DNA of 64,000 nt from a virus: positions 1 through 64,000 of the IMG/VR virus record IMGVR_UViG_3300037840_000227. One strand, 5' to 3'. The notes beneath the pieces were generated by a model that made no database searches, was not told the DNA's origin, and saw only the letters and a list, made by a program, of their open reading frames with translations. The number at the start of each line of letters is the position of its first letter. The first letter of the stretch is position 1. Below are positions 25,012 through 54,413 of this stretch, in pieces. Made by a program: the position numbers and the translations under genes.

Positions 25012-25012
25012 T

Positions 25013-25087
25013 CCCCCCTTCGACTAACGATCAAGTCAACGCCCTTTCACGGCGTTAACGCGGGGTGAGCACCCGCAGGGGGGTCCA
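25013..25087 (+). tRNA. tRNA-Glu(TTC)
   Basis: CCCCCCT/AGGGGGG, loop CTTTCAC, CCA. Confidence 0.75.
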
Positions 25088-25110
25088 AACTATCTTTGGG
25101 AGAGTGACGA

Positions 25111-25290
25111 ATGAACCTCTTTTGGCACCCAACTGGGCCTTCCCTCAGATACGAGAGGGGGGTTCTCTACATCTCTGACCTTAATCCAGAGATTCATACG
25201 AAGTGGCGTATGAGTCGATCGGAGATGTTTTGGCTTGGTATAAAATCACTTCTTTCGGCGATTCGTCCGGCGACGGCCGCGGTCTCATAA
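25111..25290 (+). CDS. Small hypothetical protein (59 aa) in the tRNA array
   Basis: GGAGA SD; MNLFWHPTGPSLRYERG...; 3' end overlaps the next tRNA. Confidence 0.5.
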   Translation: MNLFWHPTGPSLRYERGVLYISDLNPEIHTKWRMSRSEMFWLGIKSLLSAIRPATAAVS

Positions 25291-25327
25291 GCCGCGCAGG
25301 CGCGATCGACACGCGCATTCGCCTCCA
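25257..25327 (+). tRNA. tRNA-Met/Ile2(CAT)
   Basis: GGCGATT/ATTCGCC, GCGGT-CTCATAA-GCCGC, CCA. Confidence 0.65.
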
Positions 25328-25328
25328 T

Positions 25329-25405
25329 GCAAGCGATGCTCGACGGCAATGAGCGGCGCGACTGTGAATCGCGAGGAGCCCGTCCGACTCGGGCCGCTTG
25401 TACCA
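25329..25405 (+). tRNA. tRNA-His(GTG), alphaproteobacterial type (no G-1, G1:U72, A73)
   Basis: GCAAGCG/CGCTTGT-A-CCA, loop CTGTGAA. Confidence 0.78.
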
Positions 25406-25481: not shown

Positions 25482-25598
25482 TTTCGACGTTGGCGATTAA
25501 CGGTGAAACTTCCCATCGCCCATGCTATGAATCAAACGGAGCCGCCGGTCGGTTGCACGGCCTGCGGCTCCTAACCCTTGACCCGTAGCACCCGAGCC

Positions 25599-28904: not shown

Positions 28905-29534
28905 ATGGGCGCCTCGCAGCTCGGTATCTTTAATGCAGCACTTCGATTCGTCGAAGAACGCAAACTTGCGTCTTTGACGGAGCAGCGCGAACCACTCCGT
29001 TACCTCTTGGACGAATGGCAGAATGCTGTCGATTGGTGCCTCTATCAAGGCTATTGGCGGTTTGCGATTCGCGAACAGCAAGTCAATAACGACGCCAGCC
29101 AGTCGCCGGCCTTCGGCTACGAGTTCTGCTTTACTAAGCCAGCGGACTGGATCCAGACGTACCAGATTGCGGACAACGAGAGTTTCAACCCGCTGATCCG
29201 CAATCTCGAGGATATGAACAACGTCTGGTATACGGACATTTCGCCGATCTATGTGAAATACGTCTCTAGTGATCCAAACTACGGTTGGAATCTTGGCTTG
29301 TGGACGCCCGGTTTCAGCGAATTCGTGGCGGCCTACCTCGCGTGGCTGATCGCCCCACGTATCAAACAGGCCAAGGATAAGGTCGATACCCTTGAGAAGC
29401 TCGTGAAGCGCAAGAAGATTGAGGGGCAGTCGACGGATGCGTTCAGCCTTCCTCCGGGGGAATTTCCGTACGACACATGGGTTACAAGTCGTGCGCCAAG
29501 AGGTTCTATACTTCCGTACGGATTCCGCGACTAG
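28905..29534 (+). CDS. Tail tubular protein A / adaptor (T7 gp11-like)
   Basis: I.N.AL...E....SL.E, W.FA, P.FGY...F..P.D motifs. Confidence 0.82.
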   Translation: MGASQLGIFNAALRFVEERKLASLTEQREPLRYLLDEWQNAVDWCLYQGYWRFAIREQQVNNDASQSPAFGYEFCFTKPADWIQTYQIADNESFNPLIRNLEDMNNVWYTDISPIYVKYVSSDPNYGWNLGLWTPGFSEFVAAYLAWLIAPRIKQAKDKVDTLEKLVKRKKIEGQSTDAFSLPPGEFPYDTWVTSRAPRGSILPYGFRD

Positions 29535-33744: not shown

Positions 33745-34006
33745 AACGCTTCGGACTTATATCGAATGGGCGCCGTCTCAAACGGCGCCGAAAGACGGCA
33801 GAAGGGTGCTCCTGTTCATCCCTGATTACAAGGAGCCCATTCAAATAGGCTATTATCAAAAGAGCGAAACGTTCGCGCATGGCAAGCTAACGCACAGCTT
33901 GGAATGCTGGCGTGCAGGGCCTTCGCTCTATTGGAACGATTTTCCGGAGCCGACTCATTGGGCGCCGCTGCCTTTTCCACCTAAAAAGAAGAAGAGGGCG
34001 CCATGA
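33731..34006 (+). CDS. DUF551-like protein
   Basis: W.P..TAPKDGRRVLL...PTHWAPLP.PP. Confidence 0.75.
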   Translation: MTTAETLRTYIEWAPSQTAPKDGRRVLLFIPDYKEPIQIGYYQKSETFAHGKLTHSLECWRAGPSLYWNDFPEPTHWAPLPFPPKKKKRAP

Positions 34007-34626
34007 GCTTCCTTGAGCGCCTGCCGAGGCCCTGTTTCGATCCGCTGACGATTGGCTCTCTTGCGGTTTCGGCGATAGGCGCGGGTGTCGGCGCAATGGG
34101 CACGATGGCGGCGGGCCAATCAGCCAAGCAGCTCGGCCAATTCCAGCAAAAGGAATTCCTCCAGCAGGGCGAGGAAGCCGAGTCCGTCGGACAGCGCAAG
34201 ATGCTCGAACAACAGCGCCAGGGCAATCTCGTCCAGTCGCAGTTGATCGCGCGCGCGGCAGGCTCCGGGGCGTCGGCTGATTCGCCGACGGTCATGAGTC
34301 TCTCGCGTCAGATCGCGGGCCGGAGCGAATACAGCTCCTTGATGGATCTCTGGGCTGGCCAGAACCAGCAGGCCGGATTGCTCAACCAGGGGAGCGGCGC
34401 GGCCTATTCCGGCGAGCTCACCGATTTCTCAAGCAAGTTCGGCGCGGCAGGCACGCTAGCCGGCGGATTGGGCTCAATGTTCCGCACCCTGTCATTCAAG
34501 GGTGGCGGCGTTGGGCTTCCGTTCTCCGGCGGCGGCACAGGGTTCGGTGGTGTTGGGCCAGGTGTCCAGCTTCCTGGCGGCGGCATTGGCTCAGATTACG
34601 CCGCAATCGGCGGCGGTTATTACTGA
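34003..34626 (+). CDS. Internal virion (ejection) protein B-like
   Basis: CFDP.T..hydrophobic Gly/Ala N-terminus; A.A.SG motif; position. Confidence 0.72.
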   Translation: MSFLERLPRPCFDPLTIGSLAVSAIGAGVGAMGTMAAGQSAKQLGQFQQKEFLQQGEEAESVGQRKMLEQQRQGNLVQSQLIARAAGSGASADSPTVMSLSRQIAGRSEYSSLMDLWAGQNQQAGLLNQGSGAAYSGELTDFSSKFGAAGTLAGGLGSMFRTLSFKGGGVGLPFSGGGTGFGGVGPGVQLPGGGIGSDYAAIGGGYY

Positions 34627-34636
34627 GGCTTGAAAC

Positions 34637-37600
34637 GTGGTTCAGCTTCCTGGCCAAGATGCGATCGCCCCGCTTCCCGACAATCTTCCACGCCGTATTG
34701 GCGTCGGCGGGTGGCGGCCCGAGGTGCTCGAGCAAAATGCGCAGCAATTTGCGCACGGCTTCGAAACCTTGGGGATGGACATCGGGCTTTACGACGCCTC
34801 GCAGCAGCGGGCGCAGGACGCGCTTAGTCAGGCCAAGGCGAGGAGCGCGGCCGAGGTCAGCAATATCCAGACTCAGAATGACCTCGCCAATGAGACGGAT
34901 CCAGCCAAGGCCGCTGGCTACATCCAGAAATTCCAGGGCAATGTAAACAGCGCCGCCTCCATGATCCCGGAGGGTCCGCAACGCGACAACTTCCTGACTG
35001 AACAGGCGCCGACTCTGGCGCGCTCAACCGTCGGCGTCTTCAACCATATCAATAACCTCAATAATAACCAGGACTTAGCGGACTTCACCAATAACGAGAC
35101 GACGGCGATCAACGCGGCGCTCTCTACCCCGGATGACGCTCAGCGCGGCAGGGTGCTTGCGAACCTCCAGGCGCAAGGGCAGGCGCTTGTCGATAAGGGC
35201 GTGATGACGCCGGAGCAGTGGGCTCTCCGGCAGCAGAATGTTGCGAAAACCTACGGCATCACCTGGACTAAGAACGAAGCGCTCACCGCTGATCAAACCG
35301 GCGACACCTCGCGCATTCGCGCGATGCTGCCTAATTTCCTAACCTCGCCCGATGGGGCCGGCGGCGCAACGCCAGTGCCCAACGACTTGAATTGGGCCAA
35401 GGGCTCCGGATCATTCCAGGCCTATGGAGCGCAGAACGATCTGCCCCAGAAGGCCAATTTCCTGATGGGCGCCGCGGTATCGCGGCTCGGCGCGAGCCAG
35501 ACAGGCGCCGCAGCGATTGTCGGCAATGCCGTCTCAGAGAGCGGCCTTTCAACGACAGTCGGCAATTGGAAGAACGAGGATTCGCACGGGCTCTTCCAAT
35601 GGAATGACGCGGCAGGCGTACGGCGATGGAGTAAATTCCAGGAGTGGGCGACCTCCATCGATGCTGATCCCGGCAACCCAATGACGCAGTTGGCCTACGC
35701 CAAGGTTGAGGCAAGCCAAATGCGCGGCCCCAATGGCATGAGCGTTTGGCAGGCCGTCAATAGCGCGCCAACTGTCAAGGAAGCATCCGATATTTGGATG
35801 CGCTACTTCGAAGCGCCGAAAGATCAGGGCGCGGGCGCCAGCGCGGCAAGAGCGCGAGAGGCGATGGGCGCCTACCGCACTTACTCGACTGGACAGCCGA
35901 ATGCCTTCGTCGGACTGCCGCCGCCGGCGCAGGTCGCCTCGCCGGACAGCGCAGCGGTGACGCAAGTCGACTTCAGCCCAACGAATCCACAGCCCATCCC
36001 GCCGCGCGCGCAATGGCCGGATGGCGCGGCCAGTGCGGCGCACACTTCCACCGGCGAGCTCGTCTATGTCGGCCATGACGGAACGCCGCTAGGCGGCCAG
36101 ACCGGCGGCGGGACGCCAGCGAATGAGGGCGGCGCGGCCCCTCTCTCACCACCGAGAAGTCAGTGGCCGGATGGTGCAAAGGCCATCGTTCACCAGGGGG
36201 ATGGATCGCTCGCCTATGTCATGTCGGATGGGACGCTCGAGCCTGTGCCTGGCTCCCGCGCGACGGGCTCGCCGGGCGCGATGGCGCCAACTAAGACAGG
36301 AACCATCCTCGATCACATACCCCCGCAAGAAAGAGCGGAACTCGGCATTTATCTCGCCAACGAGGCGACGCGGATCGAACGTCGCAATTACGAAGCCTCC
36401 AAGCAGCAGGTTACGCTAGCCAAGGAGTCAATGAAGGGAATCCAAAGCGATCTGGTGAATGGCCAGCCTGTTCCGGATCAGACGATAAACACTATCGTCG
36501 CGCCTCTCTTGCACCACCCCAATCCAGAGGTGAAGCAGATGGCGGCGAACATCATGAACATCCGCGATAACCTCGCGCACTTCAAAGGGCAAACCCCCGC
36601 CCAGGTCGAGGATGGCATTATCAATCAGCAAGCCGAATACAACCAGGCGGTCAAGGCCAACCCTGGCGATCCACTCAATGAGATGCGATTCCAGACCTTG
36701 CAGGCATCGAAGGCCTATCTGAAGGCATATCAGACGGACATCAGCAAGAATACGCTCGAGCGCGCGGTGCGCGAGGATGTGCTGCCGAACGGCCTCACGC
36801 CACTCAATCCGACTGATCCAAGTATCGTGCAGGAGTTCACCCAGCGCGCCGCGGAAGCGCAGAAGGTGGCTGATTTCTATCACCTGCCGGAGCCGGTCTA
36901 TCTCACCCAGCAAGATCGCGTGCAGTTCAAGCGCATGGCGGCGGCAGGCGGCCAGCCGATGGCCGAACTTGCCGCCAACGCGGTGGCGGGTCTTGGCAGC
37001 CGGGCCGGGACGATGTTCAAGCAGATCGGCGGCGACGCGCCGGCCTTTGTCAGCCTGGGCCAGCTCATGCTCCAAGGCACGTCCAAGCAGAATATCGACG
37101 ACATCGCTCACTATACGGCGGCGGCGAACGATAAAGAGGCCAAGCGCGATTTGCCGCGGATCACCGATTCCGTCCTCGCCCGCTCGAAGGCGGACGATCC
37201 GCTCGGCACGACGGGGAACACCAACAATCCATTGGAGGGATTCGGGCCGGACTATCAGGGCCGCATTCGTCAGACTGCCAACATTCTCGGTGGCGCCTGG
37301 TCCGCGCGGGACGGCAAGGATCCCAAGATTGATCTCGATACGAATTATTACACCACGGAGTGGTTCAACCGCGCCTACACCGCCGCGCTCGGCGGTGAGA
37401 TGGTGAACGGCAAGCAGTACGGCGGCGTCGCGAATTATGGCGGCGGCAATTTCTTCTCGCCATCGACATGGAATAACCACCCTATGACGCAGAAAATCCT
37501 CGTGCCGCCAAACGTGAAGGCCGAGGATATGGGCTCGCTCGTCGCCCGCATTACCGACGACGACTTGAGCAAAATGCCGCGGCCGCCTGTCGATCCCGCC

Positions 37601-37924
37601 GGCCATCCTATCTCCGCCGCCCAAATCAGGAATGGCTATCTTACGGCCATTCCTGATCAGGACGACGGGATATTTCATGGCCGCTATGGCGTTATTCTTG
37701 GCGATCCGCATGACGAAGGCCACCGTCCAGTGCTCAGCAAGGATGGGAAGCCCTTCGAGCTCAACCTCAGCGCAGGAACGCTTGCCGAGGCGCTCAAGAA
37801 GCGCTCGCCGGAATCCTATCGTGACGCGCCGCCGCCGCTCCGCGGGCCAGGCGCTCCTTTGCGGAACCTGCCGGGAATGTTAGAGGCGGGTGAGGAGCCT
37901 GCTACCGCAACTGCGACGGAGTAA
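34637..37924 (+). CDS. Large internal virion/ejection protein with phage-tail lysozyme domain
   Basis: AAAIVGN...ESGL...GLFQW....R...QL.Y...E...A....F.RYFEAP; two PPR.QWPDGA repeats. Confidence 0.78.
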   Translation: MVQLPGQDAIAPLPDNLPRRIGVGGWRPEVLEQNAQQFAHGFETLGMDIGLYDASQQRAQDALSQAKARSAAEVSNIQTQNDLANETDPAKAAGYIQKFQGNVNSAASMIPEGPQRDNFLTEQAPTLARSTVGVFNHINNLNNNQDLADFTNNETTAINAALSTPDDAQRGRVLANLQAQGQALVDKGVMTPEQWALRQQNVAKTYGITWTKNEALTADQTGDTSRIRAMLPNFLTSPDGAGGATPVPNDLNWAKGSGSFQAYGAQNDLPQKANFLMGAAVSRLGASQTGAAAIVGNAVSESGLSTTVGNWKNEDSHGLFQWNDAAGVRRWSKFQEWATSIDADPGNPMTQLAYAKVEASQMRGPNGMSVWQAVNSAPTVKEASDIWMRYFEAPKDQGAGASAARAREAMGAYRTYSTGQPNAFVGLPPPAQVASPDSAAVTQVDFSPTNPQPIPPRAQWPDGAASAAHTSTGELVYVGHDGTPLGGQTGGGTPANEGGAAPLSPPRSQWPDGAKAIVHQGDGSLAYVMSDGTLEPVPGSRATGSPGAMAPTKTGTILDHIPPQERAELGIYLANEATRIERRNYEASKQQVTLAKESMKGIQSDLVNGQPVPDQTINTIVAPLLHHPNPEVKQMAANIMNIRDNLAHFKGQTPAQVEDGIINQQAEYNQAVKANPGDPLNEMRFQTLQASKAYLKAYQTDISKNTLERAVREDVLPNGLTPLNPTDPSIVQEFTQRAAEAQKVADFYHLPEPVYLTQQDRVQFKRMAAAGGQPMAELAANAVAGLGSRAGTMFKQIGGDAPAFVSLGQLMLQGTSKQNIDDIAHYTAAANDKEAKRDLPRITDSVLARSKADDPLGTTGNTNNPLEGFGPDYQGRIRQTANILGGAWSARDGKDPKIDLDTNYYTTEWFNRAYTAALGGEMVNGKQYGGVANYGGGNFFSPSTWNNHPMTQKILVPPNVKAEDMGSLVARITDDDLSKMPRPPVDPAGHPISAAQIRNGYLTAIPDQDDGIFHGRYGVILGDPHDEGHRPVLSKDGKPFELNLSAGTLAEALKKRSPESYRDAPPPLRGPGAPLRNLPGMLEAGEEPATATATE

Positions 37925-37926
37925 AA

Positions 37927-40900
37927 GTGGCCCTCGATCCAGACGCCGCTGGCGGGGATTTCTCCAACTCCCCGGCCTTCTCAAACCACTACTCGCCGGC
38001 AACCGCCGACGCCGAGGCGCCACCGTTTTCGGATCACTTCAAGAATTTCAGCGAGTCGATGGCGGACCTTGCGGGACGCATTGGCGGCGCTGGGGTAGGC
38101 CTCGCCAAGCAGATCGGCGAGACAGAAGCCGAAGCGCCCGGCGCGCCGGATCAGAAATTCTTTGGAACGCGCGATCCTGATTTGCTCGGCCGCGTCGCCT
38201 CAACTGCGGCTTCGAGCGCCCAATATAGCGGGCCTCTCGGGTTTGGCATCGCCATGGGCGACGCTGTCGAACAGCGCAACGACGCCATTAAGGATGCGGC
38301 CGGCGTCGAGATGAAAAACCCCTTCAGCGGGGATTATCGCGATCAGGCCGAAGCGCAGATGATCAAGGAGGCGCTGCAATTGCCCCCGGATCAGAGGCCA
38401 ATCTTCGGCTCGGAGGAATGGCAGCAGCGCCAGCGTGATCTTGAGTTCTCGCTCTATCAGCAGGATCTTCACAATCTTGCAGAGAAGTATTCCGGCAATT
38501 CGGATCGCGAGCGCGACATTCTCGCCGCCATCGGCGCGGATCGCGATGTTCGCCAGGATGCATCTTCGCTCGCCAACCAGCAGGCCTCGATCGCGAACCT
38601 TGCTTATGAAAAGTCCGGCGGGGGGTTCTTCCCACTGGCCGCAGCGGCGGGTGGCGAGTTTGGCGGCGGCTTCCGCGATCCAGTTACTCTCCTTTCCTTG
38701 CTTGCCTCTGGGCCGGAACGGCAGATTGCGATGCCAGCCATCAGGCGCATTGCGACAACGATGACGGAACAGGGCGCCTTTACTGGCCTAACGACAGCTC
38801 TCTTCGAACCAGAGGTGCAGGCCTTCAACAAGCAGCGCGGCGAGGACAATGGCCTCTGGCCGGCGCTGAAGGATATCGGCGGCTCGGCGCTCTTCGGCGG
38901 CGTTGCCGGCGGACTTATCGAGGGCGTCAAGCAGATCGGCCATGCCTTCGCCGGCTCGCAGCAACAGGCGGCGATAGAGGAATTCATTCGGCAGGCGCAA
39001 TCGCATGGGCCGATGTCGCCTGGGGCTAGGAAGTTTTGGGATGACGTGCAGGCGTGGGAGAATCGCCCGCAAGCGCCGGCTGGACTCCTCGAAGCGCCGC
39101 GGCCGCCGGGCGAGCCGCCGCCCAAGCCAACGAAGGGCGCCGCCAAGCCGCCGATCGAGGTTCCGCCTGGGGCGGAGAATCTCCCCGCCACGACAGCGAT
39201 CACGCCGGGCCGGATCGAAAACGCGGAGCTCGATCACCTCGCCTCGCCGCCGGCTATCCCCGGCGTTCCGCCCTCGGAAGCGCTGCGTGTCTATGAAGGC
39301 CTCGTCCAGCACGGCGAGAACCCGGATACTGTCGCCCCGCCGGCGCCGCCAATGCACGCGCCGCCCTCTGGGCCAATCATCGTCACGCCTGATCATCAGG
39401 GAATGCCGGAACGCTCCGCTGGCTACACTGGCACGATCGATGGCAAGCCAGTCACCTATCAGTCCTTCGATCCCCGGACGCTTGGAACCGACGCCCAGGC
39501 CTTTCAGTATAAGGGCGGCGCCGATCAGGCCGGCGTGACGCACAGGCTTGCGAGCGTGCAGCGCTGGGCTCCTCTCGCAGCGGGGCATGTGGTTGTCTTC
39601 GAGCGTGATAACGGCCAGCAATTCATTGTCGACGGCCACCAGCGGCTCGGGCTGGCCAGGAGGCTCGCTGGCGCCCAAACGGACGGGCAAATGCCCATCC
39701 GTTTCGATGGCGCGCTTCTCAAGGAATCCGATGGCTGGACGCCGGCTGATGCGCGTGCGATCGCGGCGAAGAAGAATATCCAGGAAGGCTCCGGCGAGCC
39801 GCTCGACACCGCGCGGGTTTTCCGCGACCGGCCGGATATGTGGGATGACAGCCTTCCTATCACCTCAGGACGTCTCAAGCAGGCCAAGGGCCTCGCAGAA
39901 CTGTCCGAGCCGGCCTGGGAGATGGCGGTCAACGGCCTCGTTCCGCACAATTACGCCTCGCTCGTTGGCCGCATGATGCCGCAGAAGGAGAATCATGCGG
40001 CGGTGATGGCGGAGCTGGCCAAATTCAGCCCGCAGAGCGAGAACGAAGCCCGGATGATGATCGCCGACGCCAATAGCGCCGGCTTCGCGCGCGATGTGCA
40101 AGAGACGCTTTTTGGAAAAGAGGAAGCCACCCGCTCGCTGATGCGGGAGCGCGCGCAGGTCTATTCCTCGGTTATTTCATTGCTCAACGAGGACAAGCAT
40201 GTCTTCCAGACTCTCGACCGGGAGGCGCAGCGAATCGAGGCGGCGGGGAATGTCCTAGTCGATACTAACGCCAGCCGGGCGGAGCGCGCCGGGCAGCTCA
40301 GTCAACTGATCGGGAAGCTTGCCGTTCGGCAGGGCCCCATCTCTGCGGCATTGAACCGCGCAGCCGCGCGCGTCGCTGCAGGGGATGAAAAGCCAAAAGA
40401 TGCAGCGCGTGCGTTCCTCAGTGACATCACCGACCTTGTTGGCAAAGATGGGATTCGGCTCGACAGGTTCACCCAGGACGGCTCGCAGGGCTCCGAGGTC
40501 GCCGAAACACCGCAGGAGATCAAGGCTCAGTCGGATGCGATGGAGCGCGAGCTCTTAGCCACGCTGCCGGCGCGGGCGCCTGTCGCTACGCCAGCGCCGC
40601 CGCCTGCTGCGCCATCCGGCCTCATGTCCACTCTCGGGACCGGACTCCCCGGCGTCGATCGCATCCTGGCCGATCCTTATGTGTCCGAGGCCATCGGCAA
40701 CCCGATCATCAACCGGAAGAACGACGTCCCCTACGGCGCGGGCCCCAACAACAAGGACGATCGCATCACCAACGTTGACCGCCATGTGCCCAAGACGGAT
40801 ACCGTCAATGGCGTGGCGTACGATCCGGCTAAGCCTGTCGTCATCCACGAGCAAGTCGAGAAGCACGTTCTCAACCGCCTCATTGCCGCAGGCGTGTCGG

Positions 40901-41625
40901 CGGAGAAGGCTTACCCGATGGCGCATTTCGGATTTGCCGAACCTGCCGAAGAGGCATGGGTGCAAACCAACCTCGGCCAGGATGCATGGCCTGAATATCA
41001 GGCTCATTGGGCCAAGTGGCTCAAGCCGATCGATCACGAGAACCCGAAGAACCCGCCGAAGGACTTGTTCCAGAAGCCCTATCCGCACGACGACGATCAT
41101 CTCGCGCCGCAGGACAAGGGCAGCTTCGAGGCCTCTGAAAAGGCAGGCGAGCCAGAGTCAGCGCAGATGCGCGCCGAGGCGGAGCGCATTCTCGGCCTTG
41201 AGGGCATGAGCCCGGCGGAGAGTCTCGCCCGCCATGCGGTTCATGAGGCCGTCACCGCCGCCGCGCAATCGCCAAGTCCGCTCGATCGTCAGATTGGCGA
41301 GATTATCGGCAAGGAAGCCCCTGAGGTTCTCGGAGCGGCGTTCCCGTCCGAGGCTGGCCCCGAGGGGACGCAGCAGACCCTCGTGCCGGGCGTCAAGCCG
41401 GTAACGGACGCCGATCGCCTACGCGCCGCCGCTGGCCAGCCCATGCGCGGCGGCAACGCGCCACCGGCAGAGGGGGGATTGTTCGATGAGGTGGGCCGCG
41501 CGCAGCCAGACATTTTTGATATGGTAGTCGATGATAAGGGCAACCTGCGTGAGAAGGGAGACGTTCTACAAAGCGTTTCCCGTGAAACATATCTCGCCAA
41601 ACTGATCGGGGAGTGTGAGGTCTAG
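37927..41625 (+). CDS. Large internal virion/ejection protein with ParB-like domain
   Basis: FQYK...G...VVFE..NG..FIVDGHQRL.LA...A..KNI.EGSG ParB-like segment; HEQVE...AH segment. Confidence 0.75.
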   Translation: MALDPDAAGGDFSNSPAFSNHYSPATADAEAPPFSDHFKNFSESMADLAGRIGGAGVGLAKQIGETEAEAPGAPDQKFFGTRDPDLLGRVASTAASSAQYSGPLGFGIAMGDAVEQRNDAIKDAAGVEMKNPFSGDYRDQAEAQMIKEALQLPPDQRPIFGSEEWQQRQRDLEFSLYQQDLHNLAEKYSGNSDRERDILAAIGADRDVRQDASSLANQQASIANLAYEKSGGGFFPLAAAAGGEFGGGFRDPVTLLSLLASGPERQIAMPAIRRIATTMTEQGAFTGLTTALFEPEVQAFNKQRGEDNGLWPALKDIGGSALFGGVAGGLIEGVKQIGHAFAGSQQQAAIEEFIRQAQSHGPMSPGARKFWDDVQAWENRPQAPAGLLEAPRPPGEPPPKPTKGAAKPPIEVPPGAENLPATTAITPGRIENAELDHLASPPAIPGVPPSEALRVYEGLVQHGENPDTVAPPAPPMHAPPSGPIIVTPDHQGMPERSAGYTGTIDGKPVTYQSFDPRTLGTDAQAFQYKGGADQAGVTHRLASVQRWAPLAAGHVVVFERDNGQQFIVDGHQRLGLARRLAGAQTDGQMPIRFDGALLKESDGWTPADARAIAAKKNIQEGSGEPLDTARVFRDRPDMWDDSLPITSGRLKQAKGLAELSEPAWEMAVNGLVPHNYASLVGRMMPQKENHAAVMAELAKFSPQSENEARMMIADANSAGFARDVQETLFGKEEATRSLMRERAQVYSSVISLLNEDKHVFQTLDREAQRIEAAGNVLVDTNASRAERAGQLSQLIGKLAVRQGPISAALNRAAARVAAGDEKPKDAARAFLSDITDLVGKDGIRLDRFTQDGSQGSEVAETPQEIKAQSDAMERELLATLPARAPVATPAPPPAAPSGLMSTLGTGLPGVDRILADPYVSEAIGNPIINRKNDVPYGAGPNNKDDRITNVDRHVPKTDTVNGVAYDPAKPVVIHEQVEKHVLNRLIAAGVSAEKAYPMAHFGFAEPAEEAWVQTNLGQDAWPEYQAHWAKWLKPIDHENPKNPPKDLFQKPYPHDDDHLAPQDKGSFEASEKAGEPESAQMRAEAERILGLEGMSPAESLARHAVHEAVTAAAQSPSPLDRQIGEIIGKEAPEVLGAAFPSEAGPEGTQQTLVPGVKPVTDADRLRAAAGQPMRGGNAPPAEGGLFDEVGRAQPDIFDMVVDDKGNLREKGDVLQSVSRETYLAKLIGECEV

Positions 41626-44375
41626 TGTCTTTCGAATCTTGCATCGACGGCATGATTGCTCGCGCTGAAATCTCCCGCGACGAGGGCGAGGAGATGAAGC
41701 GTCGCTATCGTGACGCCCTGCGCAGCGGGAGGGCGCCCCCGCTTGCCCGCGACGAAGCGCAGCGGCAAATGGACATTGCCGGCGTTCGCTCGCGCTGGCG
41801 CGAGAATGCATCGATCCAAGCGCTCGATCAGATCAAGAAAGACCTCATCTCCTTCCGGGATCCGTGGGGACGCCAGAATATCGTTGAAGCCGGCTACAAC
41901 CTCTTCGAAAACTTCGGCTATGCTGGCTACCCGGCGGTGAAGCAACTCGGCGAAGCCTACATCGGCCTGATGCACAGCCGCCTCACCGATTATCTCCAGG
42001 CCTATGAGCGCAAAGCCATCACCGGGCGCCGTCGCGGCGGTAGGGCGCTCGACAAGGACATCAAGCGCGCGCTCTTCGGCGAGCGCGCCCCGCCGCGCGC
42101 AACGGCCTTGGCGAAATTGCTCAATCAAGAGTTTGAGTTCGCCCGGCAGACGTTCAATCGCTTTGCCGGTCCGGGCAGCATCCCTAAGATGGAGAATTGG
42201 GGCGGTCCGCAGGGGCATGACGACGCCGCCCTCTTGCGCTTCGGCCAGAGCAAGATTCCGGCGGGCTGGGATCGCGATTACATCAAAGGCCTCGAGAAGC
42301 AGTTCCCCAACAATCCCCAAGCCTTCTCCAAGGAGGCCTGGGTGCGCTGGACGCATCCAAAACTCAATTGGACGAAGATGTGGGACCCGCTCACCGGCGA
42401 GCATTACCCCGCCTCCATGCCGCAGGAGAAGTCCTTCGCCATTCTCCACCATGTCTGGGAGACCGTGGCGACGGACGGCAAGATCAATATGCCCCCAAGC
42501 CGCCAGGCCGTGGGGCGCGGCTCCGTCGCCACATCTCGTTCCGATCATCGCTTTCTGATTTTCAAGGATGCCGACTCGGCGGAAGAGTACAATCGTGAAT
42601 GCGGCTCTGGCTCCGGCTTCAACCAGACGATGAATCACCTGCACGGGATGTGGCGGGACATCGCTCTGATGCACCGCTTCGGGCCCAACCCGAATGGCAC
42701 AGTCATGTGGCTCAAGCAGGCGATCGAGGAGCAATCGAACTTCCTGAAGACCGGCCACCCCAACATGTTGCCGACGCGGGCGAAGGGCTTTATTGGCCGC
42801 GCCCATGCGCCAATAGCCCACACGCCGCGCAACACCGCCGTCAAGACCGCCCATGCTCTGCGGACGATTGATGGCTTCTGGGAACAGCTCAATGGCTACA
42901 ATGCCGCGCAGAATAACCTCGCGCTCGCCGGCACGATCATGCGTAACTGGACGCTCGGCTCATTGCTGGGCTCTTCGGTGATCCCGCATGCCGTCGCCAA
43001 CCCAGCCATTCAAATGTATGCCCATTACGAGGGCGGCCTGCCAGTCGCGCGGGTGATCCCAGACTTCCTCCGTGCGCTCTATAACCGCTCGAGGCCAGAG
43101 GAGATGCTCCGGGCCGGCGTTGATACGGAGAATGCGCTCTTCCAGATCGGCTCGCTTGCCCGGCAGCAGTCGGCATTCGCCAAGGTCGCCAACTGGACGC
43201 GGTGGCTCCCTGACCGGACAACCCACTGGTCACAGCTCATCCCCTTCCTTGACGCCTTCAAGGCCGCTCACTTCCGCGGCTCGATGGCCTATCTTTCTGA
43301 TTTGCGGAAAATGTCGTGGGACAAATTGCCATCCCGCCTCAAGGGCAAGCTGCAGGGCTACGGCATCCGCGAGCCGGATTGGAAGGTGATGCAGCTCGCG
43401 CCGGAGTATCAGCCAGTCGACATGTCAGCCAATTGGATGCGCGCGACTGACATCGCCAATATGCCGGCGGAGACGCCAGAGCAGATCAAGGCGATTCTCA
43501 CCGCGGCGGGGCGGCAATCGCTCGATCCGACGAACGATCAGCCGATCGCCCGGCAGGTTGCATTCGATACGGCGGTGAAATTCGTGACTTGGATGGTGGG
43601 CGAGCGCGAGGTTGCGGTTCCGCAATCCTCCATGCGGATGCGCGCCGAGTTCCTCGGCACCGCCAAGAAGGGAAGCTACTGGGGCGAACTCGCGCGTAAC
43701 GCCTTCCAGTTCAAGGGTTTCGTCGGCGCGTTCATGGTGACGCAATCCCAGGCGATCAAGCGCGAGCTGGGCGGCAGCAAGCTGGGCGGCATCGGCTTAG
43801 CTAGCACCATGTTTATCGTGCTCTCCTTGCTCGGCATGGTGAGCCTCCAACTCAAACAGGCGCGCAGCGGCAAGGATTTCTTGCCGATGAACCCCGATTC
43901 CACCTCAGGCATTGCCACATGGGCGCGCGCCATCCTGACGAGCCTATCCTTTGGCTTCGCCGGCGATTTCCTCGCCGCCGATCACACCAGCTATGGCCAG
44001 GGTCCATTCGAGACGCTTTTGGGGCCCGCGACGGCCCTCCCGGTCAGTGCCTATGAAATGGCCAAGGGGGCAGTCGAGAACCTCGGCGGCGGCTCGCGGT
44101 CCCGCAAGCCGTTCTCCGAGACGGCGGCGGATGCAGCCATAAAGCTCCTGCGGATGCAAACACCGTTCCTGTCAACGGCGTGGCCGTTCGCCGCCGCCTA
44201 CAACCGCTTGGTGCTCGACAAACTGCATTACATGATGAACCCCGAGGCGCACCGAGAGGACAGGCTTGGCGAAGAGCGCCTGCGCAAACAGACGGGAGGC
44301 CAAAGTTTCTTCTGGCGTCCCGGCGAGAGCGCGCCGAGCCGCCTGCCGCAGTTCACCACCGCGCCGCCGCGCTAG
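41625..44375 (+). CDS. Large internal virion/ejection protein (gp16-like)
   Basis: ENWG.PQ.HD, R.L.FKDA, FGPNP, GEL.R...QFK.F, G..GDFL motifs and hydrophobic C-terminal helices. Confidence 0.78.
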   Translation: MSFESCIDGMIARAEISRDEGEEMKRRYRDALRSGRAPPLARDEAQRQMDIAGVRSRWRENASIQALDQIKKDLISFRDPWGRQNIVEAGYNLFENFGYAGYPAVKQLGEAYIGLMHSRLTDYLQAYERKAITGRRRGGRALDKDIKRALFGERAPPRATALAKLLNQEFEFARQTFNRFAGPGSIPKMENWGGPQGHDDAALLRFGQSKIPAGWDRDYIKGLEKQFPNNPQAFSKEAWVRWTHPKLNWTKMWDPLTGEHYPASMPQEKSFAILHHVWETVATDGKINMPPSRQAVGRGSVATSRSDHRFLIFKDADSAEEYNRECGSGSGFNQTMNHLHGMWRDIALMHRFGPNPNGTVMWLKQAIEEQSNFLKTGHPNMLPTRAKGFIGRAHAPIAHTPRNTAVKTAHALRTIDGFWEQLNGYNAAQNNLALAGTIMRNWTLGSLLGSSVIPHAVANPAIQMYAHYEGGLPVARVIPDFLRALYNRSRPEEMLRAGVDTENALFQIGSLARQQSAFAKVANWTRWLPDRTTHWSQLIPFLDAFKAAHFRGSMAYLSDLRKMSWDKLPSRLKGKLQGYGIREPDWKVMQLAPEYQPVDMSANWMRATDIANMPAETPEQIKAILTAAGRQSLDPTNDQPIARQVAFDTAVKFVTWMVGEREVAVPQSSMRMRAEFLGTAKKGSYWGELARNAFQFKGFVGAFMVTQSQAIKRELGGSKLGGIGLASTMFIVLSLLGMVSLQLKQARSGKDFLPMNPDSTSGIATWARAILTSLSFGFAGDFLAADHTSYGQGPFETLLGPATALPVSAYEMAKGAVENLGGGSRSRKPFSETAADAAIKLLRMQTPFLSTAWPFAAAYNRLVLDKLHYMMNPEAHREDRLGEERLRKQTGGQSFFWRPGESAPSRLPQFTTAPPR

Positions 44376-44437: not shown

Positions 44438-45058
44438 GTGTCGACCTCACTGGACATCATCGACGGAATTCCAGATCAAATCGCGTATAAAGCGCCATGC
44501 GCTTGCGCTACTACAGGAGATTTAACTAATTCTATGATTGGGCTGATAACCGTGGATGGTTATCAGCTACTTCCGAACGACAGAGTATTGGTTTGGCAGA
44601 ATAGTGATGAACGTACCAATGGAGTCTACAACGCCTCTACTGGAGCATGGGTACGGGCGGTCGATTTCACCTCAACATCTGCTATAGGAGCGGGCACGCA
44701 GGTCTACGTCTACAACGGCGTTACTTACGCCGGCTCTGTCTTTGTTTGCCAAGCCCAAATGCCAGTCGTCGGCACATCGCCGATCACCTTCAATCGCCTT
44801 TCCATGTCGACCGCGCCAAATGTGGCGCAGCTCCCGATTACGCCCGGCCAGGCCAAGCGGGCGCTGGCGACGCTCGGCTACAATGTCGAGACACTCGAGA
44901 TGGCCATCCCGGCAGATAGCCAAAACTCGATCAACATCGCCATGAATGACGCCTTCTGGCCGATCGGCGGCGCGGCGTGGGCTTTCGTGCAGTCAACCTA
45001 CGGCATTACTGGCGCGCAGGTGACGGCGATCCAAAACACGGCGACGACAAATCGATGA
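44438..45058 (+). CDS. Tail fibre proximal/anchor-like protein
   Basis: K.PC..ATT...L.G..TVDG.....DRVLV..Q.....NGVY....GAW.RA.D motif common at phage fibre N-termini. Confidence 0.75.
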   Translation: MSTSLDIIDGIPDQIAYKAPCACATTGDLTNSMIGLITVDGYQLLPNDRVLVWQNSDERTNGVYNASTGAWVRAVDFTSTSAIGAGTQVYVYNGVTYAGSVFVCQAQMPVVGTSPITFNRLSMSTAPNVAQLPITPGQAKRALATLGYNVETLEMAIPADSQNSINIAMNDAFWPIGGAAWAFVQSTYGITGAQVTAIQNTATTNR

Positions 45059-46794
45059 AGCGGATCCTCCTCGCCCTTCTCCTGTCTGTCGCCGCCGTGC
45101 CGGCGAGCGCGCAGGATGTCATCAATCGGCTCTTTTCGGTGACGCCCGGCCTTGGCGTCAGCACGGGCATTGATGTCGGCGGCCAGCAGCATGTCGTCAC
45201 CACGCTTCCCTCCGGCCTCACCTATCCATCCCCCCTCGTCACCGGGCAGGGGCTTGATATCGATCCGACGGCGGGGACGCTCAATCAGGGCATCAACATC
45301 CTGCAGGCTCCGGCAGGAACGGCATCCGGGCCGGTTGACCTCAATGTCATCAACATCTCGCCTGATACAACCGTGGCGGGAGCGAACTTTGTCGACGGGC
45401 TGGCGATCATCCTCGGCTTTGGCGGCTCGAGCGTCACCGGCGGCCGGCAGGCGTTGCAGGTCATCACCAGCCTCAATGCGGCGACTGCGCTTGGCAACCC
45501 CAATCAGAACTATGTTGGCCTCGTGGCGGAGGCGCAGTCTCAGGTCAATGACAATGGCACCAACAGCGTCGCGCAAGGGCGTCTCTACGGGTTCAACCCC
45601 ATCTGTCGCATGGCTGCGGCGGCGACGTTCTTCTATATCTGCAATTCGATGGAGGCCGACGTCCAGGTTGAGGCTGGCGCTTCCGTTCTTAATAAATACG
45701 GCTTTACCGTCGCCCAAACCGCTCTTGATGCGGTGCATGGCTCGACAAGCGAGGCGGCGATCTTCATTGGCGATCAGATCGGGGCGGCGGCGCCCTGGAA
45801 CGTCGGGTTCCTCATCGGCGATGGCGTCAATCAGAACCCCATCTCGGCGACAGGCACACTGCTTCTCTTCAAGGGCGCCCCGACGATCGCCAATGTCTTT
45901 GATCTTTCCAATGCGACGATCTCGACTTGCGCGCTGAAACTCGCGGCTGACTGCGCCGTCGGCGGCAATGGCAATCTCCTTGCGCCAACGATCACGGCGA
46001 CAACCCTCATCACCACGCCGGCCCTGACGATCAGCGGCATCACCGGCTCGACGCAGTGCCTCCAGGTGAGCACGCTCGGCGTAGTCTCCGGCACTGGGAC
46101 GGGATGCGGGGGCGGCGGCGGCGGTGGCGGCAACGTCTCTAACTCGGGCACGCCATCGGCGGGTCAGATTGCTCTCTGGGTTACTTCGACGACGATCCAG
46201 GGCGTCGCCAACCTCCCGGTCGCCAATCTCAATGGCGGCACAGGCGCGTCGAACGCCACCTACTGGCGTGGGGATGGAACATGGGCGACGCCGCCAGGCG
46301 GCACGGGCCGCGTTCTCCTCAATACGTTGACAGCTTCGAGCTCGGCGTCCCTCCAGGATACAACAAGCATTACGGGCACATACGCCCATTATGAATTTGA
46401 TTTCCAGAATGTCATTCCGGCTTCGAGCATCAACCAGTTCGAGATGCTCGTTTGCACCTCGACTTGCGGCTCGTTCCAGACATCTGGCTATGCGGGCATT
46501 TTTGGCGATTATGGCAATGGAGGGGCTTCGAGCGGCACCTCGGGCTCGTCTCAGCCGCTCTCCAGCGCCGGCATTACAACCGCATCCAACCTTAGCGGCT
46601 TTGTCCGACTCGATTACCCAGCCACGGCCAACTCACCAATCAGCGGCCAGATCACCGGCGCGATCGTCAGCGGCAATTACTTCTCCACAGCCCCGCAGGG
46701 CTGGTGGAACGGCACAGGAATTACGGGAGTGCAGTTTAAGTTCTCGACAGGCAATATTGCGTCGGGCACAATCAAAATCTATGGATTCAACTAA
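45055..46794 (+). CDS. Tail fibre/spike-like protein with N-terminal signal peptide
   Basis: MKRILLALLLSVAAVPASA|Q; NL.VANLNGGTGAS..TYWRGDGTWATP; C-terminal LL.T.TASSSA...GNIASGTIKIYG. Confidence 0.78.
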   Translation: MKRILLALLLSVAAVPASAQDVINRLFSVTPGLGVSTGIDVGGQQHVVTTLPSGLTYPSPLVTGQGLDIDPTAGTLNQGINILQAPAGTASGPVDLNVINISPDTTVAGANFVDGLAIILGFGGSSVTGGRQALQVITSLNAATALGNPNQNYVGLVAEAQSQVNDNGTNSVAQGRLYGFNPICRMAAAATFFYICNSMEADVQVEAGASVLNKYGFTVAQTALDAVHGSTSEAAIFIGDQIGAAAPWNVGFLIGDGVNQNPISATGTLLLFKGAPTIANVFDLSNATISTCALKLAADCAVGGNGNLLAPTITATTLITTPALTISGITGSTQCLQVSTLGVVSGTGTGCGGGGGGGGNVSNSGTPSAGQIALWVTSTTIQGVANLPVANLNGGTGASNATYWRGDGTWATPPGGTGRVLLNTLTASSSASLQDTTSITGTYAHYEFDFQNVIPASSINQFEMLVCTSTCGSFQTSGYAGIFGDYGNGGASSGTSGSSQPLSSAGITTASNLSGFVRLDYPATANSPISGQITGAIVSGNYFSTAPQGWWNGTGITGVQFKFSTGNIASGTIKIYGFN

Positions 46795-46809
46795 CCACGG
46801 AGGCGAATC

Positions 46810-47214
46810 ATGAAGCATGTCTTGGCGCTGACCTTTTTCCTGTCGCCCGTCGCGGCGCTGGCCCAGCCGGTCGGCAAACCTACCGAGGGGCTCCCGCCAG
46901 CGCCGATCACGCTGAGCGCCCAAGAACTCAATGACATCGTTACGACTCTTCGCCAGAGCGGCCTCTTCGTCCAGCAGGCGGATGGTTCGATGCAGCCCTA
47001 TGTCGGCAACGGCGCGGCGAAGGTGATCCAGTTGCTCGCAACGAAGGAAGCGGCAGCCGCTCATGACCTCGCCGAGGCGACGGCGGCGAAGGCCAAGGAA
47101 GAAGAGAAGAAGGCCGACGGCGAGAAGCCGCCACGGCCGCCCCATCGGCCCGACGGCGCCGAACGCACCGAGCCGCTCCGCGACGGGGAACATCACACTG
47201 AGCCGGCTAAATGA
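46810..47214 (+). CDS. Secreted hypothetical protein (possible fibre chaperone)
   Basis: GGAGG SD; MKHVLALTFFLSPVAALA|Q. Confidence 0.7.
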   Translation: MKHVLALTFFLSPVAALAQPVGKPTEGLPPAPITLSAQELNDIVTTLRQSGLFVQQADGSMQPYVGNGAAKVIQLLATKEAAAAHDLAEATAAKAKEEEKKADGEKPPRPPHRPDGAERTEPLRDGEHHTEPAK

Positions 47215-47537
47215 AGCCGGCGGGGATTGCCGCGGCTTTCCTTATCGCTTCCTACGGGTTCCTTGGCCCGGCCAGCGGGCACGATCGTTGGGATAACGGC
47301 GATCCAGTTCCGAGTTGGGTGAAGACCCGCTGCTGCGGAAAGTCCGATGTCCACCACATTCCGAATGAGGCCATCCGTATCATGGCGGACGGCTATCACA
47401 TCGAAGGCATCAACACTGTCGTTCCGTTTTCCCAAGCGCTTCCGTCGCCAGACGCGACTTACTGGGGTTTCTGGGCGCCCCTCGGAGAACCGAACCCTGC
47501 CATTTTTTGCTTTTTTGCACCTCCTAATGGGATGTAG
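47211..47537 (+). CDS. Secreted Cys-containing hypothetical protein
   Basis: Signal ending ASG|HD; CCGKSD...SPD...FCFF.P. Confidence 0.72.
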   Translation: MKPAGIAAAFLIASYGFLGPASGHDRWDNGDPVPSWVKTRCCGKSDVHHIPNEAIRIMADGYHIEGINTVVPFSQALPSPDATYWGFWAPLGEPNPAIFCFFAPPNGM

Positions 47538-52155: not shown

Positions 52156-52521
52156 ATGAGAGCGCTTATCGCTTCCCTCCTTCTCTTCGCCGCCCCGACA
52201 GTGGCCGGCGCCGTCTCTTGCGAGCAGGACGCGGCGCCTATCAAGGCTGCGATTACGGACAAGGGCGGACGCTGGATCGAACTCAATCACGATCAGCGGA
52301 TGTTTGTCGCCGCCTATTATATCCTCTCGCCCGCCACACCCTCCAACGCGCCGCTGGGGGACAAGACTGTCCTTGCCAAGTTGCCGGGCGATAAGGGAGG
52401 CCTTTTAATTTGGCTGGACGGCGACAAGGCCTGCGTGGCGCTCCCGATCCCAGACGAGCTCCTTACCCTCATGGACGATGTGACAAGCGGCGAGGTCCAT
52501 CACGTAGGAAGCGGTTCGTGA
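52156..52521 (+). CDS. Secreted hypothetical protein
   Basis: MRALIASLLLFAAPTVAG signal; two Cys. Confidence 0.7.
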   Translation: MRALIASLLLFAAPTVAGAVSCEQDAAPIKAAITDKGGRWIELNHDQRMFVAAYYILSPATPSNAPLGDKTVLAKLPGDKGGLLIWLDGDKACVALPIPDELLTLMDDVTSGEVHHVGSGS

Positions 52522-52530
52522 GGGCTCCCG

Positions 52531-53595
52531 ATGGGCGACTGGCTCGGGTTTGATCCAACTCCCTACACACCAGATGAATGGATCGCGCATGTCGCGTCGC
52601 TTGATCTATCGAAGATGCTATGGAAGCCGAGCAAAATTGTTCTTCACGCCACCGGGCTACCGACATTATCGCAATGGGTTGAGCTGGGGCCGGCTCATGA
52701 CGCGCGGCTACGCAACCTCGAAGCGCTTTATCAAGGCATGGGCTGGAAACATGGCCCCCATGCGTTTGTTTCACGCTCGCATATCAACGGGTTCTCGACT
52801 CTCTATGATCGCGGTACGCACGATTCCTGCGAAAACGCCGTCGCCTTCGGGATAGAGCAGGCTGGCAACTACAATATCGGCTACGACGCCTACCTGACCG
52901 GCGACGGCGCGCTTGTCCGCACAAACGCGATCTTGTGCGTATCGACTTTGGCGTTGAGATTCCATGTCGCAGAAGTCGATATCATCCCCCACTCGGCTTG
53001 CCGGGCCGACGGTCATTTCAATTGTCCGGGCAATGAAAACGACATGGGCCTCTTCGTGCGTGACGTGCGCGCCAAGATGGTTGATCTGCTGAACCACCCG
53101 GCGACCGGATCCTCCTTTTCCCTGCCGCCATGGCCGGCGCCCGGCGATCCCTTCTTCGCCCTCGGCGCGCGGGTGTGGAACAAGTGGCTATCGCTTGCCT
53201 ATGACGTCCCAGCGGTTGCCGCCCTGACCGGGCGCGGCGAAGGTGAATGCTCGTTGAATGTCAAACTCCGCGGCGACAGCGGAACGGCTGGAGGGCTCTA
53301 TCAGTGGCATAAGCCGCGCCGCGACTTGATTCTCGCCGGTTGCGGGATCGATGTCTGGGCGGAACCGGACATAGAGAAGCATGTCGCGGCCGCGCACTGG
53401 GAATTGCATAATAGCGAGCGTGTCGCGCTCGAAAAGATCGAGGCGGCGACAACGATTGCCGATGCGGGCGCGGCCGTCGCGGTCTTCTATTGCCGCGCCG
53501 GCGCGCCGCTGGCTGCCCAAAAGACAGGCGCCTATGCCCAGCGGTGGGCGACACTGTTTCAAAATGATCCAAGCCTTCTTCAGGTTTCGCCCTAA
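52531..53595 (+). CDS. Endolysin: N-acetylmuramoyl-L-alanine amidase + lysozyme-like domain
   Basis: IVLH.T..P...GPHAF...GIE...H.....H..CPG (amidase_2); GD.G.A.GL.QWH..R (tail-lysozyme-like). Confidence 0.82.
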   Translation: MGDWLGFDPTPYTPDEWIAHVASLDLSKMLWKPSKIVLHATGLPTLSQWVELGPAHDARLRNLEALYQGMGWKHGPHAFVSRSHINGFSTLYDRGTHDSCENAVAFGIEQAGNYNIGYDAYLTGDGALVRTNAILCVSTLALRFHVAEVDIIPHSACRADGHFNCPGNENDMGLFVRDVRAKMVDLLNHPATGSSFSLPPWPAPGDPFFALGARVWNKWLSLAYDVPAVAALTGRGEGECSLNVKLRGDSGTAGGLYQWHKPRRDLILAGCGIDVWAEPDIEKHVAAAHWELHNSERVALEKIEAATTIADAGAAVAVFYCRAGAPLAAQKTGAYAQRWATLFQNDPSLLQVSP

Positions 53596-53708
53596 TGGAC
53601 AGCGGCGACTGCGCCTTTTGGGCCGGCGTCGTTTTGTGTATAGCCGTTGGATGGATTGTCATCGGCTTAGCCTTCGAATCAGTTATGAGATGGAGAGGAA
53701 GGGAATAG
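53595..53708 (+). CDS. Small single-TM protein
   Basis: TAATG-coupled to endolysin; 37 aa with one hydrophobic helix. Confidence 0.45.
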   Translation: MDSGDCAFWAGVVLCIAVGWIVIGLAFESVMRWRGRE

Positions 53709-53712
53709 GCGC

Positions 53713-54057
53713 ATGAAATTCGAGCTCGATCCGAAGACTGTCCAGTATATCTGCGCTACATTTGCCCTGATCGGGCTTCTCGCGACTGCGTCGCCCTCCA
53801 TGTTTCCGTCCTATCTGCCGGCCGGTGTCGTCGCCGATGTCATCCAGACCGCCGGCTTCTTGACTTTCCTGTGGAACGGCTTCAACGCGATCACTCATGG
53901 GTTCTCGTCCTCGAGGCCTGGCCCGTGGGCGCCGCAGGATCCCCCTGTCGTCGTCGAGGCGCAGAAAGTCGCCGATCTTCCCCCGACAGCCGGCCCGGTG
54001 CTGATCGCCGACACCAAGGCCGCGGCGACACAGGCCGTCCTTAACCACCAACCCTGA
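53713..54057 (+). CDS. Putative holin (two TM segments)
   Basis: Two hydrophobic segments, SS.PGP motif, adjacent to endolysin. Confidence 0.55.
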   Translation: MKFELDPKTVQYICATFALIGLLATASPSMFPSYLPAGVVADVIQTAGFLTFLWNGFNAITHGFSSSRPGPWAPQDPPVVVEAQKVADLPPTAGPVLIADTKAAATQAVLNHQP

Positions 54058-54068
54058 AGGAGAAGCAA

Positions 54069-54413
54069 ATGAGAAAGATCGCCATCTTCGCCCTCGCGGC
54101 GTCGCTGTTCACCTCGGCTTGCGCGAGTTCGCAGATTTCGCAGACCGAGCAGGCCATTATCACCGATGTCCAGGCCATCACGGTTCCTCTGTGCGGGTTC
54201 CTGCCGGCCGCTGCGTCGATCGGCTCCATCTTCCTCGCCGGGGACCCGGCGCTTGCGACGGCCGAGCAGATCGCCAATGCCGTCTGCGCCGCAGTGAACG
54301 GGACAGCGCCTCCGGCGGCGGCCCGAGCAATGCGCAAGCGCGGCAATGGCCTCCCGGCGATCATCGTGAATGGGCGCCCAGTGGTGGTTAACGGCTCCTA
54401 CGTCACGCACTAA
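54069..54413 (+). CDS. Lipoprotein (possible spanin component)
   Basis: MRKIAIFALAASLFTSA|C lipobox-like; lysis region. Confidence 0.6.
   Translation: MRKIAIFALAASLFTSACASSQISQTEQAIITDVQAITVPLCGFLPAAASIGSIFLAGDPALATAEQIANAVCAAVNGTAPPAAARAMRKRGNGLPAIIVNGRPVVVNGSYVTH

Follow-up and report, generated by a model that had tools for sequence, protein, structure and literature searches.

The window analyzed here is the 64,000-nucleotide stretch at positions 1 to 64,000 of IMG/VR virus record IMGVR_UViG_3300037840_000227, a complete record of 98,782 bp with direct terminal repeats. Positions are those of the window unless another sequence is named. Between positions 44,438 and 47,537 lie four consecutive open reading frames (ORFs), designated A, B, C, and D. 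ORF A encodes an anchor-like protein without an export leader, and ORF B encodes a spike- or fibre-like protein that begins with a Sec-type leader (signal peptide). The two could be the separate pieces of a single receptor-binding appendage. The features of the locus, with lengths in amino acids (aa), are as follows.

44438..45058, + strand: A, a 206-aa leaderless anchor-like protein with a GTG start; homologues align from residue 1 (P0127), and the leader heuristic described below calls no leader.
44471..44812, + strand: N-domain of A (approximately residues 12-125), beta-rich; ten PHROG matches, 11,374 HMMER matches, and AlphaFold2 (AF2) pLDDT of 94-98.
44822..45055, + strand: C-terminal module of A (residues 129-206), LPIT.GQ..RAL...DAFWPIGG..W...T.R; a rare module and the proposed docking site.
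45055..45058, + strand: ATGA overlap formed by the stop of A and the start of B; the same -4 coupling occurs at viral loci L016 and L043.
45055..46794, + strand: B, a 579-aa leader-bearing spike/fibre protein with an ATG start at 45055.
45055..45111, + strand: predicted signal peptide of B (residues 1-19), composed of MKR, a 12-residue hydrophobic core, and P-A-S-A|Q; read from the sequence and called by the leader heuristic.
45112..45252, + strand: mature N-terminal segment of B (residues 20-66), a candidate docking segment; weak likeness to the mature N-termini of the leader-bearing proteins of L004 and L005.
45253..45906, + strand: tailspike-type domain of B (residues 67-284); 28% identity to the interior of the leaderless tailspikes of Stappia phage SI01 and Escherichia phage EcoPhCCP1.
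46108..46299, + strand: Gly run followed by a fibre repeat (GNVSNSGTP.AGQ...; NLPVANLNGGTGAS..YWRGDGTW); the motif is present in many matches.
46312..46791, + strand: C-terminal knob of B (residues 420-579), LLNTLTASSSA...GNI.SG.IKIYG; phrog_14820, E 3e-11.
46810..47214, + strand: C, a 134-aa ORF with a leader (..VAALA|QP) and a charged tail; no family match.
47211..47537, + strand: D, a 108-aa ORF, ATGA-coupled to C, that contains 3 Cys and has a leader-like N-terminus; no family match.

A preliminary description of this locus, made from the sequence alone, had reported a leaderless 206-aa ORF coupled through ATGA to a 579-aa ORF, with two more signal-peptide ORFs behind them. All four are found as described, and both C and D begin with leader-like N-termini. 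The N-terminus of A is hydrophilic and acidic. Its GTG start is accepted because homologues such as P0127 align to A from residue 1. A database gene call that begins at residue 33 (P0110) was rejected as too short. A GTG at position 44977, upstream of the ATG of B, was rejected as the start of B; it overlaps A, while the homologues of B begin at the leader.

The leader of B starts with M-K-R (net charge +2), continues with ILLALLLSVAAV, and ends in P-A-S-A|Q-D. The core is made up of 12 uncharged residues followed by Pro16, a length that is cleavable and shorter than a membrane anchor. The predicted cleavage site, A-S-A|Q-D at residues 17-21, has small residues at -3 and -1. The leader that the preliminary description placed directly before a Gln therefore has canonical Sec-type anatomy in its charge, its core, and its A-x-A site. 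B was also considered as a lipoprotein processed by signal peptidase II, and this was rejected because it has no lipobox and its first Cys is at residue 184.

Leader calls in this work come from our own heuristic applied to the N-terminal sequence. The heuristic calls a leader in 1 of 150 fibre-type proteins that carry the A domain and in 40 of 108 database relatives of B, so a chance leader on B is unlikely. It finds none among the head, tail-tube, and internal proteins of this phage at their real starts, and the nozzle of the phage, like A, lacks a leader. B is probably exported.

B contains eight Cys residues, and these fall into four close pairs (residues 184/196, 292/300, 335/351, and 467/471), as had been claimed earlier. 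The pair at 184/196 has no counterpart in the leaderless tailspikes of SI01 and EcoPhCCP1. Among the database relatives of B, the median Cys count is 8 (1.18%) for the leader-bearing proteins (n=40), of which 30 have an even and 9 an odd count. For the leaderless relatives (n=68) the median is 3 (0.59%), and the counts are even in 31 and odd in 26. Cys content is thus about twice as high in the leader-bearing group (Mann-Whitney p = 4e-7). In all seven leader-bearing fibre-like proteins of this phage, the number of Cys residues behind the leader is even: 8 in B, and 2, 6, 8, 18, 2, and 10 in the proteins of a six-gene operon described further below. Leader-bearing fibres in five other viral contigs have 7, 4, 8, 8, and 10. 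Both the content and the parity of the Cys residues fit folding in an oxidising compartment.

The same observations bear on the idea that the leader does not export the virion-borne pool of B. It might remain uncut and serve as a docking helix into A, or a leaderless isoform might be made from an internal start while the full-length form is secreted free. Some phage depolymerases are known to exist in a free and a virion-bound form through the use of alternative starts, an in-frame GTG does occur at codon 29, just past the leader, and the adjacency of A and B is conserved. A mere docking helix, however, would not be expected to have an A-x-A|Q site, a core of cleavable length, or a protein with an even Cys count behind it. 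The internal GTG is not preceded by a purine-rich ribosome-binding site, and the same leader anatomy is present on C and D, which are small and not fibres. We regard this explanation as decidedly improbable.

The body of B combines parts of tailspike and fibre type. Besides the tailspike-type domain shared with SI01 and EcoPhCCP1, it contains a fibre repeat that is present in many copies in proteins P0002 and P0003, and it ends in a knob that was located at 60 viral loci and five bacterial-genome loci at 31-42% identity. The bacterial assemblies are an Alphaproteobacteria metagenome-assembled genome, Xanthobacteraceae, Rhodopseudomonas, Terracidiphilus, and Bryobacteraceae. In the Xanthobacteraceae, Rhodopseudomonas, and Terracidiphilus assemblies, leaderless prophage fibres ending in this knob sit just before lysis genes; at prophage loci L072 and L075 they precede holin, endolysin, and spanin-like genes. 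The structural neighbours of the knob in the ESM Atlas are 88-100% viral. The 564-aa leaderless fibre of a Xanthobacteraceae prophage (L017/L072) unites both kinds of part, an A-type domain and a B-type knob, in a single polypeptide. B has zero matches in Pfam, and its structure predictions are of low confidence (AF2 single-sequence pLDDT 33; ESM Atlas pTM 0.34). With its tailspike-type domain, its fibre repeat, and a knob that also ends leaderless prophage tail fibres of Rhizobiales and Acidobacteriota, B looks like a receptor-binding protein by ancestry, and A and B together contain the domains of fibres that are single chains elsewhere.

A is composed of two parts. The N-domain has 11,374 HMMER matches, many of them at the N-terminus of proteins of 350-900 aa, and it also occurs as tandem repeats within giant proteins. 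In approximately 45 of the 150 best matches it lies within the first 20 residues. BFVD gives 92 matches at E <= 0.001; tail fibre and Mtd-N are frequent among their names, and others are named pectate lyase or capsid decoration protein. By the PHROG, HMMER, and BFVD searches combined, the domain occurs in phage fibre, spike, and decoration proteins. A has zero Pfam matches at E <= 0.01, including the T7 gp17 anchor family (Phage_T7_tail), and neither A nor B has a match in NCBIfam. A Foldseek search of A against solved structures returned nothing at E <= 0.001.

The C-terminal module of A is rare. It was found in two viral contigs and one metagenome contig from the same sample, and in zero bacterial genomes. 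AF2 confidence is low over the module, which has zero matches in the PDB. It is 40-47% identical to the A-like ORFs of L004 and L005, and it is also present in two proteins, the standalone P0127, which was looked for in viral contigs and not found there, and the fused P0154. In P0154 (751 aa), a whole A-like unit continues, without a leader, into a right-handed beta-helix (Beta_helix PF13229, 27.4 bits against a cut-off of 25.9). The N-domain matches and the module in P0154 indicate that an A-like unit can serve as the N-terminal part of a spike, and A itself looks like an anchor-like protein.

Fused relatives raise the question of an artefact, in which a sequencing error has broken a single gene into A and B, or B truly starts at GTG 44977 as a 605-aa protein with a buried leader. 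The open frame does run for 26 codons upstream of the ATG. That extension, however, overlaps A by 82 nucleotides, and the relatives begin at the leader, right at the upstream stop. The alignment of A with standalone homologues extends to the C-terminal residue of A, where those proteins stop as well (..T.R stop). The preliminary description had held that fusion of both ORFs in relatives would speak against the split. Such fusions are indeed present among relatives, but none has a leader where the two parts meet and none is a frameshifted copy; they therefore support the split rather than an artefact. An artefact is very improbable.

The division into a leaderless ORF and a leader-bearing fibre recurs in other viruses. 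A leader is present on the knob-type fibre at four of 47 viral loci (L016, L025, L027, and L043; L027 is on the same contig as L005). In the window and five other contigs, a leaderless ORF ends between -32 and +4 nucleotides from the start of the leader-bearing fibre in all six cases, with a 4-nucleotide overlap in three of them (window, L016, and L043). On a poorly resolved tree of the knobs, leader-bearing and leaderless proteins are intermixed, with 7 state changes, at least 2 of which are forced by well-supported branches. The nearest knobs to that of B on this tree belong to leaderless fibres.

The C-terminal module of A is followed by a leader-bearing ORF in all three known loci (window, L004, and L005), and in L004 and L005 the two lie within 4 nucleotides of each other. 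The A-like proteins of these three loci differ in their N-terminal halves, and L004 and L005 look like contractile-tail phages. The leader-bearing proteins of L004 and L005 have a common leader and approximately 35 mature residues (65% identity, E 3e-15), are unrelated beyond that point, and one of them ends in a B-type knob. Receptor-binding proteins that are attached to the particle usually show this pattern of a conserved N-terminus and swapped tips.

It could also be that B is exported and virion-borne while A is not its anchor. In that case A would be a short fibre or a decoration protein in its own right, and B would contact the tail in another way. The N-domain of A is indeed general-purpose, being repeated in tandem within giant proteins and present in a capsid decoration protein of solved structure, and the leaderless ORFs upstream of the leader-bearing fibres in L016, L025, and L043 are unrelated to A. 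Against this stand the three of three cases in which the rare module precedes a leader-bearing ORF, and P0154, which joins a whole A-like unit covalently to a spike. This arrangement is thought quite unlikely.

Two further observations concern these contigs. L004 encodes a second leader-bearing protein at 10559-12121 (MRKVFFAALAIFSFSSPVFA|D...), the body of which by eye resembles a pectate-lyase-type beta-helix; leader-bearing spikes therefore come in sets there too. L025, a 25-kb viral contig, has a very compact module in which a 122-aa leader-bearing ORF (269-637) stands before the portal gene and a 692-aa leader-bearing knob fibre (3366-5444) stands after it, behind a 227-aa protein.

Judging by PHROG searches, the structural module of this uncultured short-tailed phage is of the T7- and epsilon15-like podovirus type. 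Its host is presumably a soil alphaproteobacterium or acidobacterium. The genes of the module that were identified in the PHROG searches are as follows.

12945-15674: large terminase.
16726-18498: portal.
26730-27590: major head protein.
28905-29534: tail tubular protein A.
30249-33104: tail tubular protein B.
34003-41625: three internal virion proteins.
41625-44375: 916-aa virion protein (phrog_684).

The order before the locus is thus tail tubular proteins A and B, then four internal or virion proteins. ORFs A through D come directly after the 916-aa virion protein, and the DNA-metabolism genes start behind them. A-B is the sole fibre candidate between the terminase gene and the DNA-metabolism genes. 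The 916-aa virion protein has matches only in epsilon15- and phiV10-like phages, at approximately 25% identity, and a search for close relatives of it found none. In a distant syntenic relative (record Dunaliella viridis virus SI2), the same slot holds a leaderless 491-aa fibre-like gene. The placement of the pair at the usual fibre position, as it had been put earlier, therefore agrees with both the gene order and the content of this slot.

Three features of the head module stand apart from this question. The large terminase is unusually long (909 aa) and is matched in separate stretches. Several HNH endonuclease genes (15809-16774, 18495-19016, and 25578-26501) are scattered through the module, and they surround an array of 28 tRNA genes at 20899-25405.

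Approximately a dozen leader-bearing proteins are encoded by the phage. At positions 216-9856, just upstream of the terminase gene, six consecutive ORFs have Sec-type leaders and fibre-, beta-helix-, or glycanase-like bodies. Four of the six proteins have zero matches in PHROGs, and the four tested against NCBIfam have zero there. Another small, cysteine-rich, secreted-looking protein of 140 aa, with 8 Cys and a leader (MIRSLLIAAAMLVAGEAWA|T), is encoded in the genome beyond the window (95168-95590).

This abundance of leaders favours another account of B, as a protein that is exported but is no part of the virion. B would be a free, spike-like envelope factor that masks or trims the receptor glycan against superinfection, or that stops progeny from sticking to debris, and A would be a short fibre or a decoration protein. 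With about a dozen leader-bearing proteins, including a six-gene fibre- and glycanase-like operon outside the structural module, the set looks more like a secreted toolkit, and the domain of A is found in decoration proteins as well. Leader-bearing phage genes have also been read as envelope modifiers (PMC10367356). However, B occupies the fibre slot and is joined through ATGA to a gene for an anchor-like protein, ordinary prophage tail fibres have its knob as their tip, and particle-attached receptor-binding proteins typically show the combination of a conserved N-terminus and swapped tips seen in L004 and L005. Without B, the structural module is left with just a 206-aa candidate fibre, and a periplasmic protein would need an extra transport step to reach a receptor on the outer surface. 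This account is rather unlikely, though it is the one among the alternatives that we take most seriously.

The reading that we prefer, with some reserve, is that A and B are the two pieces of one receptor-binding appendage and are made in separate compartments. A, without a leader, would stay in the cytoplasm, where its N-domain would sit on the finished tail. B would be translated in step with A through the ATGA overlap, carried by Sec across the inner membrane, and cut by signal peptidase I after A-S-A. Folding, with formation of four local disulfides, would take place in the periplasm. Once the holin has opened the inner membrane and merged the compartments, B would meet the particles while the outer membrane still encloses both, and it would dock on the C-terminal module of A through its first mature residues.

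The preliminary description had likewise proposed a split fibre with an exported receptor-binding part. The locus does look like a split fibre, with a leaderless anchor-like piece, a leader-bearing distal piece, single-chain relatives, a canonical leader, and the parity of the Cys residues in its favour. The remainder, namely the export and docking of B, cleavage of its leader, formation of the disulfides, contact between A and B, and late joining to the virion, is what we infer.

A wider version of this reading can be put forward more tentatively still. Not only this phage but also other uncultured phages, scattered among those of soil Alphaproteobacteria and Acidobacteriota, might mount an adaptor in the cytoplasm and export through Sec a disulfide-folded tip, which would join the C-terminal module when the holin opens the membrane. 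Lysis would then be the last step of virion assembly.

Several points weigh against assembly in two compartments. The support for export of B is indirect, coming from the anatomy of its leader, from the heuristic, and from the content and parity of the Cys residues. The leader is found at just 4 of 47 viral knob loci and so is dispensable for such a fibre. The likeness of the mature N-terminus of B to the common segment of L004 and L005 is weak and non-significant (E 0.56), and the association of the C-terminal module of A with leader-bearing partners rests on few cases, the module being known from just three loci plus P0127 and P0154. The N-domain of A also occurs in capsid decoration proteins (phrog_2647), and its sole solved relative by sequence is one of these (PDB 9nx3, E 2.6e-5). 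VIA-align of A gives a best match of Z 4.2, to a siphophage baseplate chain, which is not a clear match to a solved anchor. Finally, a leaderless 453-aa protein is encoded among recombination genes beyond the window (genome positions 74714-76075; L068:10714-12075). It is composed of an Ala/Ser-rich coiled coil, a poly-Pro linker, and a region with a GH16-like ExDxxE motif, where the Pfam SKN1/KRE6 match is weak and below the cut-off. This protein may be another virion glycanase, or a lysis glycanase. A leader is thus not present on every candidate host-recognition protein of the phage.

ORFs C and D have zero family matches in Pfam, NCBIfam, and PHROGs. They were considered as lysis genes and rejected, the likely lysis genes being located instead at approximately 52-54.5 kb. 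That region (52156-54413) contains a 121-aa leader-bearing ORF and a 354-aa protein. The C-terminal part of the 354-aa protein matches a tape-measure-type family (phrog_9570), and a wall-hydrolase domain in it is our own guess. Behind it are two 114-aa ORFs, the second with a lipoprotein-like N-terminus (..LFTSAC), and the two may be a spanin pair.

The usual view is that tailed-phage particles are assembled wholly in the cytoplasm. If the tip of this appendage does mature in the periplasm and join at lysis, it would add an assembly step tied to the timing of the holin and would explain the disulfide-stabilised fibres of soil phages. Annotation would be affected, as leader-bearing fibre genes are now easily dismissed as non-structural, and expression of such fibres in other hosts may require oxidative folding. 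With its leaderless anchor, its leader-bearing tip, its single-chain leaderless relatives, and a predicted mature N-terminus at Gln20, the locus is a clean test case.

Phage proteins that use host export are known, among them Sec-exported endolysins, signal-anchor-release (SAR) endolysins, and spanins. These, like the genes of Porphyromonas phages, have bacterial signal peptides such as that on B, but they are lysis proteins or presumed envelope-modifying proteins. In the Porphyromonas phages, leaders are described on capsid, spanin, and unknown genes, and the term 'tail fiber' is never used (PMC10367356). A paper on the Tunturi phages does not mention signal peptides or tail fibres. A literature search combining tail fibre or tailspike with signal peptide turned up no paper on a tailed-phage fibre or tailspike that naturally has such a peptide. 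The contribution of this locus is a clean separation of a leaderless anchor from a leader-bearing tip, together with single-chain leaderless relatives and a rare anchor module that is tied to leader-bearing partners.

Late addition of a receptor-binding protein has precedents. P22 gp9 joins heads late, as do the long tail fibres of T4, and their attachment also works in vitro. In both systems the receptor-binding protein is added last to a finished particle, as is proposed for B. Because attachment there is late and separable, joining after the compartments merge is physically plausible. These proteins fold in the cytoplasm with no export step, and B differs from them by its leader.

Among related fibres and spikes, P0154, the L017/L072 fibre, and the tailspikes of SI01 and EcoPhCCP1 share with A and B the A-type N-domain and the C-terminal module, the tailspike-type domain, or the knob. 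Unlike A-B, each of these is a single leaderless polypeptide.

Two-piece systems are known in podoviruses, where an adaptor or anchor carries exchangeable tailspikes (the SP6/K1-5 adaptor and the Klebsiella KP32-type anchor-branch). A has no sequence match to SP6/KP32-type adaptors or to the T7 gp17 N-domain. The layout is similar, with a small piece that would bind the particle, then a distal spike or fibre, and genes that end the structural module. The conserved N-terminus and swappable tip of the distal piece in those systems have a clear parallel between L004 and L005, whose common segment B resembles weakly. In the SP6/K1-5 and KP32-type systems both pieces are leaderless and are assembled in the cytoplasm, whereas the distal piece described here has a Sec-type leader and paired Cys residues.

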